DNA of 64,000 bases from Escherichia coli (GCF_965641715.1 NZ_OZ282453.1); one strand, 5' to 3'; counted from the stretch's first letter, positions 26,089-36,647 are shown. The notes: a model not told the origin generated them from the letters alone. Program-made: numbers and translations.

Positions 26089-27216
26089 TTGAATTACCAA
26101 ATGATTACCACGGACGATGCGCTGGCTTCTTTGTGTGAAGCCGTCCGTGCCTTTCCGGCGATAGCCCTGGATACTGAATTTGTTCGTACGCGCACTTATT
26201 ACCCGCAGCTGGGGTTGATTCAACTTTTCGATGGCGAGCATCTGGCGCTAATTGATCCTCTCGGGATCACCGACTGGTCACCGCTGAAAGCGATCCTGCG
26301 CGATCCGTCCATCACAAAATTTCTCCATGCAGGCAGTGAAGATCTGGAAGTGTTCCTCAATGTCTTTGGCGAATTACCACAACCCCTGATTGACACGCAA
26401 ATCCTTGCTGCCTTCTGCGGACGCCCGATGTCATGGGGTTTTGCTTCCATGGTGGAAGAGTATTCCGGCGTTACGCTGGACAAGAGTGAATCGCGCACCG
26501 ACTGGCTGGCCAGACCGCTGACCGAACGTCAGTGTGAATATGCAGCGGCGGATGTCTGGTATCTGTTACCGATCACCGCCAAGCTTATGGTAGAAACGGA
26601 GGCCTCCGGCTGGCTACCAGCGGCGCTGGATGAATGCCGCCTGATGCAAATGCGTCGTCAGGAAGTCGTTGCGCCGGAAGATGCCTGGCGTGATATCACC
26701 AATGCCTGGCAATTACGCACACGCCAACTGGCCTGTCTGCAACTGTTAGCCGACTGGCGACTGCGCAAGGCGCGAGAGCGCGATCTGGCGGTGAACTTTG
26801 TCGTGCGTGAAGAGCATTTGTGGTCGGTAGCGCGTTATATGCCGGGAAGTTTAGGCGAACTGGACAGCCTGGGTTTATCCGGTAGCGAAATCCGCTTTCA
26901 CGGTAAAACGCTGCTGGCGCTGGTGGAAAAAGCGCAGACATTGCCGGAAGAGGCCTTACCGCAGCCGATGCTTAACCTGATGGACATGCCGGGTTATCGT
27001 AAAGCGTTTAAAGCGATTAAGTCGCTGATTACTGACGTGAGCGAAACGCACAAGATCAGCGCCGAATTGCTGGCATCGCGTCGGCAAATCAACCAACTGC
27101 TGAACTGGCACTGGAAACTGAAACCGCAGAACAATTTGCCGGAGCTGATTTCCGGCTGGCGTGGTGAGCTGATGGCGGAAGCATTACACAATTTATTGCA
27201 GGAATATCCGCAGTAA
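26089..27216 (+). CDS. rnd: Ribonuclease D
   Basis: 375-aa ORF, DEDDy 3'-5' exonuclease domain plus HRDC domains. Confidence 0.9.
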   Translation: MNYQMITTDDALASLCEAVRAFPAIALDTEFVRTRTYYPQLGLIQLFDGEHLALIDPLGITDWSPLKAILRDPSITKFLHAGSEDLEVFLNVFGELPQPLIDTQILAAFCGRPMSWGFASMVEEYSGVTLDKSESRTDWLARPLTERQCEYAAADVWYLLPITAKLMVETEASGWLPAALDECRLMQMRRQEVVAPEDAWRDITNAWQLRTRQLACLQLLADWRLRKARERDLAVNFVVREEHLWSVARYMPGSLGELDSLGLSGSEIRFHGKTLLALVEKAQTLPEEALPQPMLNLMDMPGYRKAFKAIKSLITDVSETHKISAELLASRRQINQLLNWHWKLKPQNNLPELISGWRGELMAEALHNLLQEYPQ

Positions 27217-27222
27217 AATTTT

Positions 27223-27265
27223 CCGAAGCCGGACTGGGCGCGCTCAGCGCCACATCCGGCTTCGG
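27223..27265. repeat. REP-like extended palindrome between convergent rnd and yeaX
   Basis: 11-bp perfect stem CCGAAGCCGGA/TCCGGCTTCGG enclosing a GC-rich inner palindrome; GCCGGA/TCCGGC cores typical of REP elements. Confidence 0.6.
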
Positions 27266-27269
27266 CAAA

Positions 27270-28235
27270 CTACAAATCCAACACCAGGCGTTTACCCTTC
27301 GCACGCGAACAACAGATCAACATACTTTGCTGGCTGGCACGCTCTTCATCGCTAAAATACTGATCCCGATGGTCAGCTTCACCTTCCAGTATTGCCGTTT
27401 CGCAGGTTCCGCATACCCCTTCACGACATAAACATTCCACTTTCGCGGCTTTATTATTTTCAATAACCTGCAAAATAGTCATCTCTTCCGGCACCACAAA
27501 CTCTTTTCCGGAACGGGCAAGCACCAGGGTAAATGCATCGCCGGTTTTGTCTTCGATAGCAAATTGCTCAAAGTGCAGCGTATCGGCAGCGATGTCCAGA
27601 CGCGCAGCTTCACTTCTTACCGCTTCAATTAGCGCCTCGGGGCCACAGGTATAAACGTGTGTGCCAGGTTCGATATCCGCCAATAATCGCGCTAATTCCA
27701 GTCGTGTTCCGGTTGATGAATGATGCAAATGGACTTTCTCAGCCTGCGGATGCTGGACTAGCTCATCACGAAATGCGCATCTTTCTGGATTTCGCGAGCA
27801 GTAATGTAGCTGCCAGTCGACGTCGCTGTGTTGCAACTCTGCCATGTGCGACAGGAAAGGGGTGATACCAATACCGCCCGCGATAAACAGATGCTTTCTG
27901 GCTGAGGGAATTAGCGCAAACAGGTTATTAGGCGTTGAGATCGTTAACCGATCGCCCACTTTTACCTGCTGATGCAAAAAGCGGGAACCGCCGCGCGAGT
28001 TTTCTTCCAGTCGAACGGCAATCTGATAACTAGAGGTGTTATGCGGTGAACTCAGTAGTGAATACGCATTGCTGTACTGGTTATCACCATCGCTCATCTG
28101 CACTATGATGTGACTTCCTCCGGTGAACGCAGGCAGCGGTTTGCCATCGGTTGCCACCAGCGTGAAGCGTTTCACCTGTTCGGTAAGCGGTTCCACCTGA
28201 CTCACCTGTACTTCAAACATTTGATAGTCTGACAT
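27270..28235 (-). CDS. yeaX: Oxygenase reductase subunit YeaX (FNR-like flavin domain plus 2Fe-2S ferredoxin)
   Basis: 321-aa ORF; C-terminal plant-type ferredoxin cysteines (CREGVCGTC...C); reductase partner of the adjacent Rieske oxygenase. Confidence 0.85.
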   Translation of the reverse strand: MSDYQMFEVQVSQVEPLTEQVKRFTLVATDGKPLPAFTGGSHIIVQMSDGDNQYSNAYSLLSSPHNTSSYQIAVRLEENSRGGSRFLHQQVKVGDRLTISTPNNLFALIPSARKHLFIAGGIGITPFLSHMAELQHSDVDWQLHYCSRNPERCAFRDELVQHPQAEKVHLHHSSTGTRLELARLLADIEPGTHVYTCGPEALIEAVRSEAARLDIAADTLHFEQFAIEDKTGDAFTLVLARSGKEFVVPEEMTILQVIENNKAAKVECLCREGVCGTCETAILEGEADHRDQYFSDEERASQQSMLICCSRAKGKRLVLDL

Positions 28236-28290
28236 TGCTGTACTCCATCAAAAATCAGCCCGGCGGCGGAAAATACCGCCGCCGATGTCA

Positions 28291-29415
28291 TTAGTCCTTA
28301 AATACCTGCGCCAGCAGATTATGGAAATGGGCGATACCATGTTCGGAAATGCCGCTACCGCTACTGTCGGCCATGATGCGCCCCTGACCACGATAGCCAC
28401 GCGATTTCAGCCCTTTCTGTACGCTTTCAACCAGACGTAAATCTTCCGGACGGAACACATCGCGATACCACTCAATCAGCGATTTTTGCTCGTCGGTTAA
28501 CTCTTCATTGGTGAAGTAAATATCGTAGTTTTGCAGGGTAGTTTCAGAATCCACCGGGAATTCATAAATGACCGTCATCATCCCTTTGATCGGGGTGACG
28601 TTCAGCATCGTGCACGGCCACAGCCAGAAACCGTGGAATGCCGCATCCGTACCCTCTTCAAATTTAAACGACTGTTCGGACGGTTTGGCGAAACCGTATT
28701 GCAGCGTCCAGTTACCGTGCATGGTGTGCCAGTAACGATCAACCTGAACGGAGTCGGAGAAACCTGGATGCGCCGGACCACAGTGATAGCACTCGAGATA
28801 GTTATCGACAATGTTCTTCCAGTTGGCAGGCGTGCGGGTGGTAAAGCGGGCCGCCAGTTTCAGGTCGTGGACTTCCGGGCAGGCTTCCAGCACTTTCGCC
28901 CCCAGACCGGGTAACTGATCTTCTACGCTGGAGGCGTTGGGGTCCATGTTGATGAAGACGAATCCGGCATATTCTTCCAGACGTACTGGAACCAGTTGCG
29001 CTTTGTCGCTATCGAAATTGGCGACGTTTTCGCAGTTACGTGCATGGGCCAGATTGCCATCGAGTTTGAATGCCCATGCGTGATATGGGCAGGTAATCAC
29101 ATTTTTTGCTTTTCCTTCACCGCTCAACAACTGATGACCACGGTGCGGACACACGTTATAGAACGCGCGCAAAACCTTATCACGACCGCGTACCAGCACG
29201 ATGCTTTCGCCAATGATCTCACGCGTCACATAATCATTGGCATTCGCCAGTTCGCTGCTGTGAGCGACGCAAATCCAGCTTTTGGCGAAGACGTTCTCTT
29301 TTTCGTGTTCAAAGGCGTTCTGATCGGTATAAAAACGGGCAGGAATGGTCCACGCCTCTTGCGGGTTAGCGCAAAAATTTTCGGGTAGTACAAAGTCAGG
29401 GCTCAGATTGCTCAT
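28291..29415 (-). CDS. yeaW: Rieske 2Fe-2S non-heme iron oxygenase YeaW (carnitine monooxygenase-like)
   Basis: Rieske motif CPHRG...CPYHAW; start set at MSNLSPDF (374 aa), track ORF extends 40 codons upstream. Confidence 0.85.
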   Translation of the reverse strand: MSNLSPDFVLPENFCANPQEAWTIPARFYTDQNAFEHEKENVFAKSWICVAHSSELANANDYVTREIIGESIVLVRGRDKVLRAFYNVCPHRGHQLLSGEGKAKNVITCPYHAWAFKLDGNLAHARNCENVANFDSDKAQLVPVRLEEYAGFVFINMDPNASSVEDQLPGLGAKVLEACPEVHDLKLAARFTTRTPANWKNIVDNYLECYHCGPAHPGFSDSVQVDRYWHTMHGNWTLQYGFAKPSEQSFKFEEGTDAAFHGFWLWPCTMLNVTPIKGMMTVIYEFPVDSETTLQNYDIYFTNEELTDEQKSLIEWYRDVFRPEDLRLVESVQKGLKSRGYRGQGRIMADSSGSGISEHGIAHFHNLLAQVFKD

Positions 29416-29446
29416 AGGGATACCTTTATCGTTAGGATGATGGCGC

Positions 29447-31057
29447 TCAGTTGTCGCCTTTGAATACGGTTCCCGCAGGGAGCACTGGTGTTTTTTCCAG
29501 GGCTTCAACCGGTGTCTGCGGGAGATAATGTTCAACTTGATGAGCCGGAATGTCGGCGTAATCCTGTTTCAGCCAGCGAATAAATCCGCCGACTTTCACC
29601 AGTAAAATGACGAGGAAGGGAAGGGCTGTGAGCACGACGGTGGTTTTCATCGTTTCCAGCGAAGCACCGGTAAACAAGATGGAAAGCGGGATCAGAGTGA
29701 TCACCACGCACCAGAAAAGACGCAGCCCACGGTCAGGATCGTCACCTTCCTGGAGATTACGCGTACTGGTCGCCGCCATGGTGTAGGCCACTGCATCCAT
29801 ATGCGAGGCAAGGAAAATAATCATTACGCCCAGGTATGCGGCGAGGAACAATTTACCGGCTGGCAACGACATCAGAACTTGCTGTACAGCTGTTTCGCCG
29901 CCCAGTGTTTCCAGCACCTGTGGGACGTTGATTACGCCATTGATAAACTGATGAATGGCATAGCTTTCCATTACGCCGAAGAAGAACCAGCAACCGACGG
30001 TGCTGCCGAGGATCAGTCCCCAGATAACTTCTTTAATCTTACGACCGCGGGAAACGCGGGTGACAAACATTGCTACGCCAGGGGGGTATGAGATCCACCA
30101 CAGCCAGTAGAAAACGGTCCAGTTGCGGGTAAATGAACCATCGCCAAGCGGATCGGTGAATAAGCTCATTTGCAGGAAGTTTTGCGTGGTCAGACCGATG
30201 GCATTGATGATGCTGTTGGTAATAAATTCGGTTGGACCGACAATCAGCACCAGTAATGTCAGCAGGAACGCGCCCCAGCCAACCATTTTGCTCAGACGTT
30301 GCAAACCGTTGTTGATACCAATCCATGAGCTTAGGCAAAAAATGCCGCCGGAAAGCAGGATCACAAATGCCTGCACGGTGAAGTTATCGGGTAAACCGGT
30401 CAGTGCGGAAAGTCCGCGAGTAAAGGTTGCTGCGGTGACAACAAGGGAAATAGTCAGTGCGCCGACAGTGGCGATCAGGAACATCAAATCAACCAGTTTT
30501 CCCCATGGGCCTTGCGGGCGAACGCCGGTAATCGCGGCAATAATGCCGGAAAGACTCAGACCTTTGTTTTTCCGCACATGAAAGTGATAAGCCATGATTA
30601 ATGAGGCCAGCGTATAAGTTGCCCAGGCGCTGATGCCCCAGTGGAAGAAGGAGTAAGGGACGCTAAATTCGAGTGCCTGTTGTGAACGCGGTGCGATATT
30701 TAATCCAGGCGTTTGATAATAATAGGCCCATTCAGCAACCCCCCAATAAAGCGTAGAAGAACCTAAACCGGCACAAATAAACATAAACAGCCAGGAGAGC
30801 GTGCTGTATTCCGGTTTTCCTTCGCCAAGACGAATATTGCCGTATTTACTGGTGGCTAAATAAATCACCAGTCCCATTGCCAGCAAAACCAATACCTGTA
30901 CGGCGGAACCTAACGTACGCGTAACAAAAGTGTATATTGCGTTGGCCGCGTCGGCCGATTGTTGTGGGAAAAGGCTTAATGCAGCTGCGATGAAAAGAAT
31001 GGCCACCAGGCTGATGCTTATCAGCGGCACATCTTTTTTCTTAACATTGCTCATCAT
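29447..31057 (-). CDS. yeaV: BCCT-family (betaine/carnitine/choline) transporter YeaV
   Basis: Polytopic membrane ORF with Trp-rich BCCT signature region ([14 protein letters not shown]); true start codon uncertain, full track ORF given. Confidence 0.8.
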
Positions 31058-31261
31058 GAGTCATCTCCTGGGCATAAAAGCCCGTCTCTGGCTTTTGCCA
31101 GTTGTAATTATTTGCAGGGTAATGAGTTGTATGTTGTGTTTAACAAATTGATTATTTGCATGTTACATAAATTAAACAATTAAGAATACGGAAAGCCATA
31201 AAACACGAAACGGAAACAATAAAAGGTGAAATGACGCAGGTTATTAACTGCAAAGAACGAA

Positions 31262-31288
31262 TAAAAAAACCGCGTCAGTGACGCGGTT
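31262..31288 (-). terminator. Intrinsic terminator after dmlA
   Basis: Minus-strand hairpin CCGCGTC/GACGCGG followed by U-run (A-run 31263-31269 on plus strand). Confidence 0.7.
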
Positions 31289-31307
31289 CAAATAAACTGG
31301 TTTGACC

Positions 31308-32393
31308 TTAACGCAAAATAATTTTGCAAATCGCGTCGGCAACCTGTGGCGTGGTGGCACTGCCTTTCATATCCGGTGTTTTCGGCCCGTGAGCAATCAC
31401 TTCTTCAATCGCTGCCAGAATACCGTTATGCGCTTGCTGGAAACGCTCATCGCCATTGCCGAGAAAATCGAGCATCATTGCACCGGCCCAAATTGTGGCG
31501 ATAGGGTTAGCAATATTTTTCCCGTAGATATCCGGCGCGGAACCGTGGACAGGCTCGAAGAGCGACGGGAAAGTGCGTTCCGGATTCAGGTTGGCGGATG
31601 GGGCAATGCCAATGGTGCCGGTGCAGGCCGGGCCAAGATCGGAAAGGATATCGCCAAACAAATTGGACGCCACCACCACATCGAAGCGTTCCGGCTGCAT
31701 CACAAAACGCGCGCAGAGAATATCAATATGCTGCTTGTCCCAGCGGATCTCCGGGTAATTCTCGGCCATTGCTTCCACTCGCTCATCCCAGTACGGCATG
31801 CAGATGGCTAAACCGTTTGATTTAGTGGCAGAAGTTAGCGTCTTACGTGGGCGGCTTTGCGCAAGTTCGAAGGCATAACGCAAAATGCGATCGACACCAC
31901 GACGCGTAAATACCGATTCCTGAATGACGACTTCATGCTCTGTACCTTCATTCACTCTACCGCCGAGCGAGGAATATTCGCCTTCGGTGTTTTCCCTGAC
32001 CACGTAAAAATCGATGTCGCCAGGCTGTTTTCCCGCCAGCGGGCAGGGAACGCCAGGAAAGAGACGAACCGGGCGCAGGTTGACGTACTGGTCGAATTCA
32101 CGACGAAATTTCAGCAGCGAACCCCACAACGAAATATGGTCCGGAACGGTGTCCGGCCAGCCGACGGCACCAAAATAGATGGCGTCGAAACGGCTAAGTT
32201 GCTCATGCCAGTCGTCCGGCATCATTTTACCGTGATGGCTGTAATACTCGCAGCTCGCCCACTCCATTTGCTCAAAACTCAAGGCGAAGCCCCAGCGCTC
32301 AGCGGCAGCCTGTAACACGCGAATCCCTTCAGGAAGGACTTCTTTGCCAATCCCGTCTCCCGGGATCGCAGCAATACGCATCGTTTTCATCAT
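31308..32393 (-). CDS. dmlA: D-malate dehydrogenase (decarboxylating) DmlA (YeaU)
   Basis: 361-aa ORF of the isocitrate/isopropylmalate/tartrate dehydrogenase family. Confidence 0.9.
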   Translation of the reverse strand: MMKTMRIAAIPGDGIGKEVLPEGIRVLQAAAERWGFALSFEQMEWASCEYYSHHGKMMPDDWHEQLSRFDAIYFGAVGWPDTVPDHISLWGSLLKFRREFDQYVNLRPVRLFPGVPCPLAGKQPGDIDFYVVRENTEGEYSSLGGRVNEGTEHEVVIQESVFTRRGVDRILRYAFELAQSRPRKTLTSATKSNGLAICMPYWDERVEAMAENYPEIRWDKQHIDILCARFVMQPERFDVVVASNLFGDILSDLGPACTGTIGIAPSANLNPERTFPSLFEPVHGSAPDIYGKNIANPIATIWAGAMMLDFLGNGDERFQQAHNGILAAIEEVIAHGPKTPDMKGSATTPQVADAICKIILR

Positions 32394-32495
32394 TGGGTTC
32401 TCACTTCCTGACCATCAAAATTGACAACATCACCATCCTATAATTGACTGAAAAGGAATTAATCCCTGTAACTGGTGAAACATAAAACACGAATC

Positions 32496-33419
32496 ATGAA
32501 TAATTTACCGCTGCTGAATGATTTGCGCGTCTTTATGCTGGTGGCTCGCCGGGCTGGTTTTGCCGCCGTGGCGGAAGAACTGGGCGTTTCACCGGCGTTC
32601 GTCAGCAAGCGCATCGCCTTGCTGGAGCAAACGCTAAACGTGGTGTTGTTACACCGCACCACCCGCCGCGTCACCATTACCGAAGAAGGAGAGCGGATTT
32701 ATGAATGGGCGCAGCGGATTTTGCAGGATGTCGGTCAGATGATGGACGAACTTTCTGACGTGCGTCAGGTGCCACAGGGGATGCTGCGTATTATCAGCAG
32801 CTTTGGTTTTGGACGACAGGTGGTGGCTCCGGCGTTATCAGCGCTGGCGAAGGCGTATCCGCAACTGGAATTACGTTTTGATGTGGAAGACCGGCTGGTC
32901 GATTTGGTCAATGAAGGTGTCGATCTCGATATTCGCATTGGCGATGACATCGCCCCTAATTTAATCGCCCGCAAACTGGCGACCAATTACCGCATTCTCT
33001 GCGCGTCGCCGGAATTTATTGCGCAACATGGCACGCCGAAACATTTAACCGATCTTTCTGCATTGCCGTGCCTGGTCATTAAAGAGCGCGATCATCCTTT
33101 TGGTGTCTGGCAATTACGCAATAAAGAAGGCCACCATGCGATTAAAGTCACCGGCCCACTGTCGTCTAATCATGGAGAAATTGTCCATCAGTGGTGTCTC
33201 GATGGGCAGGGGATTGCTCTGCGTTCCTGGTGGGATGTTAGCGAAAACATTGCCAGTGGTCATTTAGTGCAAGTGCTACCGGAATATTACCAGCCAGCGA
33301 ACGTCTGGGCCGTTTATGTTTCAAGGCTGGCGACGTCAGCGAAAGTGCGGATAACGGTAGAATTTTTACGCCAGTATTTTGCCGAGCACTACCCGAATTT
33401 TTCACTGGAGCATGCCTGA
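32496..33419 (+). CDS. dmlR: LysR-family regulator DmlR (YeaT), divergent from dmlA
   Basis: N-terminal LysR HTH; start set at MNNLPLLNDLRVF (307 aa), track ORF begins 7 codons earlier. Confidence 0.85.
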   Translation: MNNLPLLNDLRVFMLVARRAGFAAVAEELGVSPAFVSKRIALLEQTLNVVLLHRTTRRVTITEEGERIYEWAQRILQDVGQMMDELSDVRQVPQGMLRIISSFGFGRQVVAPALSALAKAYPQLELRFDVEDRLVDLVNEGVDLDIRIGDDIAPNLIARKLATNYRILCASPEFIAQHGTPKHLTDLSALPCLVIKERDHPFGVWQLRNKEGHHAIKVTGPLSSNHGEIVHQWCLDGQGIALRSWWDVSENIASGHLVQVLPEYYQPANVWAVYVSRLATSAKVRITVEFLRQYFAEHYPNFSLEHA

Positions 33420-33476
33420 TTAATGATTCAATTATCGGGTTGATATCAGGTTAAAACCTGATTTTCTCCTTTCTAA

Positions 33477-34184
<708 letters not shown>

Positions 34185-34262
34185 TGCTTTCAGCCCGCGT
34201 TGTCGCGGGCTTCCCATCTATAATCCTCCCTGATTCTTCTCTGATATGGTGCTAAAAAGTAA

Positions 34263-34290
34263 CCAATAAATGGTATTTAAAATGCAAATT
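34263..34290 (+). promoter_or_regulatory. Putative NsrR operator in the yeaR promoter
   Basis: AT-rich imperfect palindrome CCAATAAATGGTATTTAAAATGCAAATT about 70 bp upstream of the yeaR start; the yeaR-yoaG operon is known to be NsrR/NarL regulated. Confidence 0.4.
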
Positions 34291-34356
34291 ATCAGGCGTA
34301 CCCTGAAACGGCTGGAATAAACCGTTTTCAGCGCATTCACCGAAGGAGGGAAAAGG

Positions 34357-34479
34357 ATGCTTCAAATCCCACAGAATTATATTCATACGCGCTCAACGCC
34401 TTTCTGGAATAAACAAACTGCACCTGCTGGAATATTCGAACGTCATCTTGATAAAGGAACGCGCCCGGGGGTTTACCCC
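34357..34479 (+). pseudogene. yeaR: yeaR 5' fragment (codons 1-41), interrupted by IS186
   Basis: MLQIPQNYIHTRSTPFWNKQTAPAGIFERHLDKGTRPGVYP then reads into the IS and stops after 13 foreign codons. Confidence 0.85.
34468..34478. repeat. Left target-site duplication of IS186 (GGGGTTTACCC)
   Basis: Identical 11-mer recurs at 35817-35827 immediately after the right end of the IS. Confidence 0.8.
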
Positions 34480-35816
34480 ATAAGCGCTAACTTAAGGGTT
34501 GTGGTATTACGCCTGATATGATTTAACGTGCCGATGAATTACTCTCACGATAACTGGTCAGCAATTCTGGCCCATATTGGTAAGCCCGAAGAACTGGATA
34601 CTTCGGCACGTAATGCCGGGGCTCTAACCCGCCGCCGCGAAATTCGTGATGCTGCAACTCTGCTACGTCTGGGGCTGGCTTACGGCCCCGGGGGGATGTC
34701 ATTACGTGAAGTCACTGCATGGGCTCAGCTCCATGACGTTGCAACATTATCTGACGTGGCTCTCCTGAAGCGGCTGCGGAATGCCGCCGACTGGTTTGGC
34801 ATACTTGCCGCACAAACACTTGCTGTACGCGCCGCAGTTACGGGTTGTACAAGCGGAAAGAGATTGCGTCTTGTCGATGGAACAGCAATCAGTGCGCCCG
34901 GGGGCGGCAGCGCTGAATGGCGACTACATATGGGATATGATCCTCATACCTGTCAGTTCACTGATTTTGAGCTAACCGACAGCAGAGACGCTGAACGGCT
35001 GGACCGATTTGCGCAAACGGCAGACGAGATACGCATTGCTGACCGGGGATTCGGTTCGCGTCCCGAATGTATCCGCTCACTTGCTTTTGGAGAAGCTGAT
35101 TATATCGTCCGGGTTCACTGGCGAGGATTGCGCTGGTTAACTGCAGAAGGAATGCGCTTTGACATGATGGGTTTTCTGCGCGGGCTGGATTGCGGTAAGA
35201 ACGGTGAAACCACTGTAATGATAGGCAATTCAGGTAATAAAAAAGCCGGAGCTCCCTTTCCGGCACGTCTCATTGCCGTATCACTTCCTCCCGAAAAAGC
35301 ATTAATCAGTAAAACCCGACTGCTCAGCGAGAATCGTCGAAAAGGACGAGTAGTTCAGGCGGAAACGCTGGAAGCAGCGGGCCATGTGCTATTGCTAACA
35401 TCATTACCGGAAGATGAATATTCAGCAGAGCAAGTGGCTGATTGTTACCGTCTGCGATGGCAAATTGAACTGGCTTTTAAGCGGCTCAAAAGTTTGCTGC
35501 ACCTGGATGCTTTGCGTGCAAAGGAACCTGAACTCGCGAAAGCGTGGATATTTGCTAATCTACTCGCCGCATTTTTAATTGACGACATAATCCAGCCATC
35601 GCTGGATTTCCCCCCCAGAAGTGCCGGATCCGAAAAGAAGAACTAACTCGTTGTGGAGAATAACAAAAATGGTCATCTGGAGCTTACAGGTGGCCATTCG
35701 TGGGACAGTATCCCTGACAGCCTACAAAACGCAATTGAAGAACGCGAGGCATCGTCTTAACGAGGCACCGAGGCGTCGCATTCTTCAGATGGTTCAACCC
35801 TTAAGTTAGCGCTTAT
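34479..35816 (+). mobile_element. Insertion sequence IS186 (IS4 family), about 1338 bp
   Basis: Perfect 22-bp terminal inverted repeats ATAAGCGCTAACTTAAGGGTTG (34480-34501) and its reverse complement (35795-35816); single transposase ORF; flanked by an 11-bp direct repeat; boundary uncertain by 1 bp on the left. Confidence 0.9.
34528..35646 (+). CDS. IS186 transposase (DDE, IS4 family)
   Basis: 372-aa ORF MPMNYSHDNWSAILAHIGKPEELDTSARNAGALTRRREIRDAATLLRLGLAYGPGG... recognised as the IS186 transposase. Confidence 0.9.
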   Translation: MPMNYSHDNWSAILAHIGKPEELDTSARNAGALTRRREIRDAATLLRLGLAYGPGGMSLREVTAWAQLHDVATLSDVALLKRLRNAADWFGILAAQTLAVRAAVTGCTSGKRLRLVDGTAISAPGGGSAEWRLHMGYDPHTCQFTDFELTDSRDAERLDRFAQTADEIRIADRGFGSRPECIRSLAFGEADYIVRVHWRGLRWLTAEGMRFDMMGFLRGLDCGKNGETTVMIGNSGNKKAGAPFPARLIAVSLPPEKALISKTRLLSENRRKGRVVQAETLEAAGHVLLLTSLPEDEYSAEQVADCYRLRWQIELAFKRLKSLLHLDALRAKEPELAKAWIFANLLAAFLIDDIIQPSLDFPPRSAGSEKKN

Positions 35817-35827
35817 GGGGTTTACCC
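35817..35827. repeat. Right target-site duplication of IS186 (GGGGTTTACCC)
   Basis: Direct repeat of 34468-34478. Confidence 0.8.
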
Positions 35828-36065
35828 ACGCCTTTCCGTTATGCATGGGGCGGTCAAATATCTCGGCTACGCTGATGAACACAGTGCAGAGCCTGATCAG
35901 GTGATCCTTATCGAAGCGGGGCAGTTTGCGGTGTTCCCTCCAGAAAAGTGGCACAACATTGAAGCCATGACTGACGATACTTATTTCAACATTGACTTCT
36001 TCGTGGCTCCTGAAATCCTGATGGAAGGTGCGCAACAACGGAAAGTCATTCATAACGGGAAATGA
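35817..36065 (+). pseudogene. yeaR: yeaR 3' fragment (DUF1971), in frame with the duplicated target
   Basis: GVYPRLSVMHGAVKYLGYADEHSAEPDQVILIEAGQFAVFPPEKWHNIEAMTDDTYFNIDFFVAPEILMEGAQQRKVIHNGK; the duplicated GVYP codons show the IS split one ORF. Confidence 0.85.
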
Positions 36066-36068
36066 ATC

Positions 36069-36251
36069 ATGGGCAAAGCAACGTATACCGTGACCGTCAC
36101 CAATAACAGCAATGGCGTTTCTGTCGATTATGAAACAGAGACGCCGATGACTTTGCTGGTGCCAGAAGTGGCGGCTGAAGTGATAAAAGATCTGGTGAAT
36201 ACCGTGCGTTCTTATGACACGGAAAACGAACATGATGTTTGTGGTTGGTAA
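36069..36251 (+). CDS. yoaG: Small protein YoaG (DUF1869)
   Basis: 60-aa ORF starting 4 bp after the yeaR stop; second gene of the yeaR-yoaG operon. Confidence 0.8.
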   Translation: MGKATYTVTVTNNSNGVSVDYETETPMTLLVPEVAAEVIKDLVNTVRSYDTENEHDVCGW

Positions 36252-36398
36252 TTATCACTGATCGTTGATGGCGCAATTTCTGCGCCATCGCAAAATAATC
36301 CTCCGTGATGCTCGTCACAAATCTTGCCCTCCCGATGTTGTGCTATGCTTTTTATCAGCGACTAACCCGCTAATGCAAAACAGATAAGTGAGGAAACA

Positions 36399-36647
36399 AT
36401 GGGCATTCTGTCATGGATTATTTTTGGGCTTATTGCCGGTATTCTGGCGAAGTGGATCATGCCAGGTAAAGATGGTGGTGGATTCTTTATGACTATCCTG
36501 CTGGGGATAGTCGGTGCCGTAGTCGGCGGATGGATCAGCACGCTGTTTGGCTTTGGTAAAGTTGATGGCTTCAATTTTGGCAGCTTCGTGGTTGCCGTTA
36601 TTGGTGCGATTGTCGTGCTATTTATCTACAGGAAGATTAAAAGTTAA
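36399..36647 (+). CDS. yeaQ: Transglycosylase-associated (GlsB/YeaQ/YmgE) small membrane protein YeaQ
   Basis: 82-aa Gly-rich two-TM ORF. Confidence 0.85.
   Translation: MGILSWIIFGLIAGILAKWIMPGKDGGGFFMTILLGIVGAVVGGWISTLFGFGKVDGFNFGSFVVAVIGAIVVLFIYRKIKS

Follow-up and report, generated by a model that had tools for sequence, protein, structure and literature searches.

The genes yeaV, yeaW and yeaX have been analysed in a 64,000-nucleotide stretch of Escherichia coli DNA (GCF_965641715.1, NZ_OZ282453.1; the whole stretch is called the window here), and the locus that they form is very probably an undamaged chromosomal orthologue of the carnitine monooxygenase module of Acinetobacter. The enzyme system encoded by yeaVWX is already known, as it has been annotated, biochemically characterised and structurally understood. 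The window adds no new enzyme biology, and its practical value lies in the strain variation that was found at the 5' end of the transporter gene yeaV and in the extent of the cluster.

Gene content and conservation of the locus

Positions 27270-31057 of the window are occupied exactly by three minus-strand open reading frames (ORFs) in the ORF listing, none of which contains an internal stop codon (Table 1). The spacers are 31 nt between yeaV and yeaW and 55 nt between yeaW and yeaX. A preliminary description made from the sequence alone had given this extent, which proved correct to the base, and the gene names, gene order and domain types that it proposed agreed with the ORFs, with the Pfam and NCBIfam domains and with the annotation of other genomes. 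A longer reading of yeaW, as a 414-amino acid ORF beginning with TTG (28291-29535), was rejected because it would overlap yeaV by 89 nt and because both the reference annotation and the alignment with CntA start at the ATG at position 29415.

A megablast search with the segment 26900-31500 (4.6 kb) was carried out against 5,426 complete E. coli genomes, a biased collection whose counts are not population frequencies, and the same stretch was found at identities of up to 99.6%. The annotation of the matching stretch (for yeaV, that of 33F4) places yeaV, yeaX as "reductase subunit" and yeaW as "carnitine monooxygenase, oxygenase subunit" between rnd and dmlA, and proteins with exactly the YeaW, YeaX and YeaV sequences of the window have already been recorded for E. 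coli. A Shigella origin had been considered, given the IS element described below and identities of less than 100% to the complete E. coli genomes, and was discarded on account of these E. coli records. The yeaVWX genes are a real, syntenic chromosomal locus and not a chance pattern.

The oxygenase YeaW and the reductase YeaX

YeaW contains the Rieske and Ring_hydroxyl_A domains (Pfam) and aligns end-to-end with the crystallised CntA of Acinetobacter baumannii (PDB 6y8j; E 3e-196), with 268 of the 368 aligned residues identical (73%). Functional positions were compared with the residue lists given in the CntA structure paper (PMC7948474), in the paper on the Cys pair (PMC10952381) and in the study of the E. 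coli enzyme (PMC9508527). The Rieske ligands C89/H91/C109/H112 correspond to C86/H88/C106/H109 of CntA, the 2-His-1-carboxylate triad of the mononuclear iron (H211/H216/D325) to H208/H213/D323, the bridging glutamate E208 to E205, the pi-cation tyrosine Y206 to Tyr203 and the Cys pair C209/C212 to Cys206/Cys209. All the pocket residues are identical (F219/Y228/F260/N272/Y297/Y317/F321 in YeaW, F216/Y225/F258/N270/Y295/Y315/F319 in CntA), and the proposed docking residues R83/K104/K117/E330 are kept. The active-site alignment with CntA had been named beforehand as a check in the preliminary description, and the presence of all Rieske and iron ligands did not contradict its proposal; the likeness to CntAB-type carnitine monooxygenase systems was borne out by these ligands, by the identity to CntA and by the type of reductase.

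The organization of the locus is that of an oxygenase made of alpha subunits only, with no extra ORF among yeaV, yeaW, yeaX and rnd and with a single reductase gene immediately after the spacer that follows yeaW. When compared with the protein of K-12 MG1655, YeaW carries one substitution (T162S), by which no listed functional position is affected. The predicted catalysis, in which L-carnitine, reduced nicotinamide adenine dinucleotide (NADH) and O2 would yield trimethylamine (TMA) and malic semialdehyde, is supported by the near-identical K-12 enzyme (PMC9508527).

YeaX comprises the Pfam domains FAD_binding_6 (residues 9-103), NAD_binding_1 (117-207) and Fer2 (240-313), and its residues 9-321 match the phthalate dioxygenase reductase (PDB 2pia; E 3.5e-56). 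The [2Fe-2S] cysteines C270/C275/C278/C308 are present, and the residues H221/R271/T277/E279/K313/D320, which are important by mutagenesis (residue list from PMC9508527), are also kept. Four substitutions separate YeaX from the MG1655 protein (V43I, D66N, C69S and S152R), none of them at a listed functional position. Flavin mononucleotide (FMN) is known as the cofactor of YeaX from the purified protein only (PMC9508527).

The purified E. coli YeaX and YeaW proteins were characterised by Piskol et al. 2022, who identified as cofactors FMN, a plant-type cluster, a Rieske cluster and a mononuclear iron, measured the consumption of carnitine and O2, obtained active chimeras with CntA/CntB and constructed 28 site-directed variants (PMC9508527). 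The yeaW and yeaX genes used in those assays were amplified from K-12 DH10B and reported to be identical to the KO11FL sequence (PMC9508527), and YeaW of DH10B has the same sequence as CntA of strain SE11 (PMC6200775). According to papers citing Kalnins 2018, a single substrate profile is common to the orthologues of E. coli, Providencia, Serratia and Klebsiella, and the activity is high with carnitine and gamma-butyrobetaine, medium with glycine betaine and very low with choline (for the activities also PMC5433236). Carnitine and gamma-butyrobetaine are turned over by YeaW/CntA at similar rates (PMC5433236; PMC9508527). The conflicting reports on substrate range are largely reconciled, and the statement of the preliminary description that they leave the identity of the enzyme open is out of date, as YeaW is now treated in the literature as CntA.

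The transporter YeaV

YeaV, the least studied of the three proteins, matched the Pfam BCCT family (PF02028; TC 2.A.15) over residues 14-499 (E 2e-121, 406 bits with a cut-off of 27) and the NCBIfam equivalog NF007412 over positions 1-536 of 536 (1029.6 bits with a cut-off of 647). Its best relatives of solved structure were DddT (E 1e-99) and CaiT (E 6e-70), and 137 of the 476 positions aligned with CaiT were identical (29%). Common to both proteins are the BCCT fold, Glu111 and the five aromatics that form the primary substrate box; this Trp box, located in the transmembrane segments TM4 and TM8 and expected to accommodate the trimethylammonium group, consists of W140/W145/W320/W321/Y324 in YeaV and of W142/W147/W323/W324/Y327 in CaiT. 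However, the CaiT residues at the Na2 position (Arg262) and at the Na1 position (Met331) are replaced by Val259 and Val328 in YeaV. In CaiT these two residues occupy the sodium sites and have been linked to ion-independent exchange (PMC3442516). The antiporter mechanism of CaiT was discarded as a candidate for YeaV because the equivalents of Arg262 and Met331 are absent, and the NCBIfam CaiT equivalog scored 346 bits on YeaV, below its cut-off of 541. By this comparison, exchange of the CaiT type is unlikely for YeaV and, because valine is found at both sodium-site positions, we infer that the protein is an ion-coupled importer like Aci01347 of A. baumannii.

In a metabolomics screen based on K-12, overexpression of yeaV was accompanied by carnitine depletion (PMC10971958), which is indirect for transport. 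Two substitutions, P267T (codon at about 30257-30259, minus strand) and T325P (codon at about 30083-30085, minus strand), are private to YeaV of the window, as none of the other E. coli YeaV proteins compared carries them, and the exact protein is found on just a handful of contigs. Residue 325 is threonine in the other E. coli YeaV proteins and in DddT, and alanine in CaiT. T325P adjoins the Trp-box residue Tyr324 (Tyr327 in CaiT), in a strained part of TM8.

Proposed route of carnitine degradation

In the mechanism proposed, YeaV, a BCCT protein with 12 predicted transmembrane segments, would import L-carnitine and probably gamma-butyrobetaine. YeaX would transfer two electrons from NADH to FMN and, one at a time, on to the Rieske cluster of YeaW by way of its own plant-type [2Fe-2S] cluster (C270/C275/C278/C308). 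In the YeaW trimer, an electron would cross from the Rieske cluster of one subunit to the Fe(II) of the neighbouring protomer, with Glu208 as the bridge at the interface, and O2 would be activated at this mononuclear Fe(II), bound by H211/H216/D325. The substrate would be held by Tyr206 through a pi-cation contact and by the residues F219/Y228/F260/N272/Y297/Y317/F321, and its monooxygenation followed by C-N cleavage would produce TMA and malic semialdehyde. The electron-transfer and cleavage steps are taken from the literature on the K-12 enzyme, from which the proteins of the window differ in one residue (YeaW) and four residues (YeaX).

Malic semialdehyde may then be oxidized to D-malate by an unlinked aldehyde dehydrogenase, for which GabD has been suggested, and D-malate may be decarboxylated to pyruvate by the product of the adjacent gene dmlA, possibly under the control of DmlR. 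The linkage of dmlA and dmlR to yeaVWX mirrors the A. baumannii cluster, and both genes are missing together with yeaVWX in a genome of the sequence type 131 (ST131) kind, which argues for this route. The genes dmlA and dmlR have been described as the orthologues of mdh and carR, with 72% identity between DmlA and the A. baumannii MDH and 45% identity between DmlR and CarR (PMC11353897). The route from carnitine to malic semialdehyde, D-malate and pyruvate has been reconstituted for A. baumannii (PMC11353897), and the presence of a D-malate dehydrogenase beside yeaVWX is consistent with it because the degradation of carnitine passes via D-malate. Two substitutions in these neighbours, S198C in DmlA and A180T in DmlR, are absent from both the 33F4 and the K-12 references.

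Strain variation

A segment of 224 bp (30930-31153) is missing in K-12 (C600 and MG1655) and in BL21(DE3), the three strains in which the truncation was directly checked. This deletion removes 128 nt of coding sequence, corresponding to yeaV codons 1-43 with the start codon included, and 96 bp upstream with the ribosome-binding site. The truncated yeaV is called a pseudogene by the Prokaryotic Genome Annotation Pipeline (PGAP), and the MG1655 record shows instead a product of 481 amino acids from an internal start. The full-length yeaV is judged to be the ancestral form, because the whole 536-position family model is matched and the BCCT domain begins at residue 14.

At least 80% of the locus was found in 4,367 of the 5,426 genomes and the 224-bp segment in 2,930 (about 54%), so that the truncated form is present, by subtraction, in about 1,437 genomes. 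Those with the intact locus include the O157/O55 lineage. In another group of about 1,059 genomes (about 20%), nothing but the rnd end of the query is retained. One of these, an ST131 genome, was inspected and lacks 27291-31872 and 32040-33251, a loss that comprises yeaVWX and, except for small remnants, dmlA and dmlR. Three states of the locus exist in E. coli: intact, with a 5'-truncated yeaV, and deleted along with dmlA/dmlR.

A further difference among strains was observed in yeaR, which is interrupted in the window after about codon 41 by a 1,338-bp IS4-like insertion sequence (IS) of the IS421/IS186 type (34479-35816). This element carries a transposase ORF (34528-35646, plus strand) and is flanked by an 11-bp duplication, GGGGTTTACCC, at 34468-34478 and 35817-35827. 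It is absent from the aligned 33F4, ST131 and C600 loci, and yeaR of BL21(DE3) contains an IS of 99.8% identity, inserted at nearly the same position but in the opposite orientation. This points to yeaR as an insertion hot spot that would have been struck independently in BL21(DE3) and in the strain of the window.

Physiological role of the locus

Several observations weigh against a carnitine route that operates in E. coli. Growth on carnitine was not observed for BL21, B and K12, activity was undetectable in an extract of BL21, and a condition that induces the genes in E. coli is not known (PMC11353897). The sole substrate screen of YeaV was made with K-12 strains and clones and gave many unrelated candidate substrates (PMC10971958). 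Between leuE and rnd, no ORF for an aldehyde dehydrogenase (malic semialdehyde dehydrogenase, msadh) or for a hydrolase (acylcarnitine hydrolase, hyd) was found, in agreement with PMC11353897, and the cluster is not a complete A. baumannii-type operon. The rare T325P change beside Tyr324 may impair transport in this particular strain. With regard to expression, a consensus scan revealed no strict sigma-70 consensus in 31058-31266, although the scan is uninformative on the promoter, with 5 matches overall and a mean of 6.6 in shuffled sequences. Only weak CRP (TGTGA-N6-TCACA) and LysR-type motifs were found upstream of yeaV, namely one 8/10 CRP-like match inside the dmlA terminator, 7/10 matches elsewhere and one weak LysR T-N11-A motif, and a CRP or LysR site is not claimed from these matches. 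A CRP study based on systematic evolution of ligands by exponential enrichment (SELEX) lists yeaV among its predicted targets.

The strains tested without growth on carnitine include K12 and BL21 (PMC11353897), and the Keio/ASKA-based yeaV screen was made in K-12 (PMC10971958), so that a truncated yeaV was involved in both the published growth tests and the screen. Since K-12 and BL21(DE3) lack the yeaV start codon, the ribosome-binding site, 43 codons and 96 bp upstream, the negative carnitine data could partly be a strain artefact, and in strains whose locus is intact yeaVWX might be expressed, with uptake of carnitine and aerobic release of TMA; we consider this tentative, with the balance of likelihood clearly on the other side. 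Such strains could even route malic semialdehyde via GabD and DmlA to pyruvate.

It is possible, but unlikely, that gamma-butyrobetaine and not carnitine is the physiological substrate, in which case the product of the Cai pathway would be taken up on re-oxygenation and cleaved to TMA and succinic semialdehyde. Under anaerobic conditions, carnitine is reduced to gamma-butyrobetaine by the Cai pathway of E. coli, and succinic semialdehyde is converted to succinate by GabD or Sad. The malic semialdehyde dehydrogenase that is lacking in the cluster would not be required, and this role is also consistent with the similar turnover of both substrates (PMC5433236; PMC9508527), with the co-crystallisation of gamma-butyrobetaine and CntA (PMC7948474), whose pocket YeaW shares residue for residue, and with an earlier assignment of YeaW to gamma-butyrobetaine (Koeth 2014, cited through PMC6200775). 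However, the neighbouring genes dmlA and dmlR would be sensible only for D-malate derived from carnitine, and they have been lost together with yeaVWX in the ST131-type genome; the two substrates are mutually compatible.

The locus could also be the decaying remnant of a complete carnitine operon, competent if overexpressed and otherwise essentially silent under weak selection, a view that we find doubtful. The absence of msadh and hyd, the lack of growth on carnitine, the inactive BL21 extract and the lack of a known inducer (PMC11353897) agree with decay, as do the distribution of the full-length yeaV 5' end (2,930 of the 5,426 genomes, with about 1,437 truncated and about 1,059 without the cluster) and the private, non-conservative changes in YeaV of the window. 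In contrast, the ORFs are intact with all catalytic residues conserved, and yeaV and yeaW have been listed with genes whose expression rises at growth transitions of O157:H7 Sakai (PMC2241611); the lineage of Sakai keeps the full-length locus. Moreover, the strains without growth on carnitine include K-12 and BL21, where yeaV is truncated. In addition, the nucleotide and amino-acid differences from K-12 are 13 and 1 in yeaW, 23 and 2 in yeaV, and 20 and 4 in yeaX, and the enzyme genes look to be under purifying selection because few amino-acid changes are found among the nucleotide differences.

A role of the module in trimming intracellular carnitine pools for compatible-solute homeostasis, instead of carbon catabolism, is improbable: it has been proposed for cntA clusters without msadh and/or mdh (PMC11353897), the E. 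coli cluster is without msadh and BCCT transporters commonly carry osmoprotectants, but E. coli keeps mdh (dmlA) and hence does not have the msadh/mdh-less type of cluster, and YeaV ends about 35 residues past the BCCT domain without the long C-terminal extension of osmo-activation (criterion from PMC6562126).

Carnitine monooxygenase is one of the gut-bacterial routes to TMA, the precursor of trimethylamine N-oxide (TMAO), which has been linked to cardiovascular disease, and the cntA sequences detected in human stool are carried mainly by E. coli (PMC5433236). If the negative carnitine data were partly a strain artefact, the counts of cntA in metagenomes would over-estimate the TMA potential of K-12-type lineages, and TMA output would vary among E. 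coli phylogroups. Unlike in the laboratory strains examined, the locus is intact in the window, so that its in-vivo role would be more cleanly testable in a strain of this type.

Transcription and neighbouring features

The features of the locus and its surroundings are presented in Table 1. The yeaVWX genes would form their own transcription unit, starting within the AT-rich region 5' of yeaV and ending at the hairpin shared with rnd, as suggested by sequence inference. The G+C content is 0.43 in 31000-31499, and an activator-dependent promoter would be compatible with the region 31058-31266. Although they lie side by side, dmlA and yeaVWX are probably separate transcription units, because dmlA has its own strong terminator. 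The whole 55-nt spacer between yeaW and yeaX folds with -28.4 kcal/mol (z -5.0), and the sole difference of its hairpin from K-12 and BL21 is the change of a G-C pair to G-U. This hairpin may act as a partial terminator or attenuator of yeaX, or as a stabiliser of the upstream mRNA, and may in this way set the ratio of oxygenase to reductase. The long hairpin between the convergent genes yeaX and rnd is likely a bidirectional terminator and was judged similar to repetitive extragenic palindromic (REP) elements. No match was found with Rfam at gathering thresholds in 26500-36500.

Table 1. Genes and non-coding elements of the yeaVWX locus in the window.
Feature	Position	Strand	Description
yeaX (cntB)	27270-28235	-	321 amino acids, ATG start; phthalate-dioxygenase-reductase type (class IA), N-terminal FMN/NADH part and C-terminal plant-type [2Fe-2S] domain
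yeaW (cntA)	28291-29415	-	374 amino acids, ATG start; Rieske [2Fe-2S]/mononuclear-iron oxygenase subunit, carnitine monooxygenase
yeaV	29447-31057	-	536 amino acids, ATG start; BCCT-family transporter, putative carnitine/gamma-butyrobetaine importer
dmlA	31308-32393	-	D-malate/3-isopropylmalate dehydrogenase (decarboxylating), directly 5' of yeaV; annotation, Pfam Iso_dh
dmlR	32496-33419	+	Divergent LysR-type regulator; annotation, HTH_1 and LysR_substrate domains
Hairpin between convergent yeaX and rnd	27223-27265		Long hairpin; fold -35.5 kcal/mol, z -5.9
Hairpin in the yeaW-yeaX spacer	28260-28285	-	10-bp GC-rich stem followed by GCUGAUUUUU (partial U-tract)
AT-rich region 5' of yeaV	31058-31266	-	209 bp; AGGAG ribosome-binding site, presumed promoter
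Intrinsic terminator of dmlA	31267-31289	-	10-bp stem followed by a T run; terminator scan; fold -16.9 kcal/mol, z -3.8

Comparison with known systems

Among the Rieske oxygenases of group V, the glycine betaine monooxygenase GbcA/BmoA and Stc2 have in common with YeaW the Rieske and catalytic domains and the chemistry of quaternary amines. GbcA is the best NCBIfam match of YeaW, yet the score is 154 bits with a cut-off of 670 and covers residues 19-223 only, so that YeaW lies outside the GbcA family. A close correspondence is found with the CntA/CntB system of A. baumannii (PDB 6Y8J, 6Y8S, 6Y9D and 6ZGP; EC 1.14.13.239), which has the same two-component architecture as YeaW/YeaX and whose metal site, bridging glutamate, pi-cation tyrosine, Cys pair and pocket are identical in YeaW. 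Five genes of the A. baumannii cluster carR-mdh-bcct-hyd-cntA-msadh-cntB have orthologues in E. coli (dmlR, dmlA, yeaV, yeaW and yeaX), although the gene order of both clusters differs. The A. baumannii BCCT protein has a published identity of 56% to YeaV (PMC11353897). Aci01347, the carnitine/choline importer of the BCCT family encoded in the cntA cluster of A. baumannii (PMC6562126), resembles YeaV in its short C-terminus, which is consistent with the lack of osmo-activation; its transport is energy-dependent and osmolarity-independent, and it is needed for growth on carnitine (PMC6562126).

The YeaX/YeaW enzyme of K-12 that was studied by Piskol et al. 2022 is encoded by the same locus as that of the window, with identical ligands and mutagenesis-defined residues and with strain-level substitutions only. 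The chromosome from which that enzyme was taken differs in carrying a truncated yeaV, whereas in the window the full yeaV gene of 536 codons is present.

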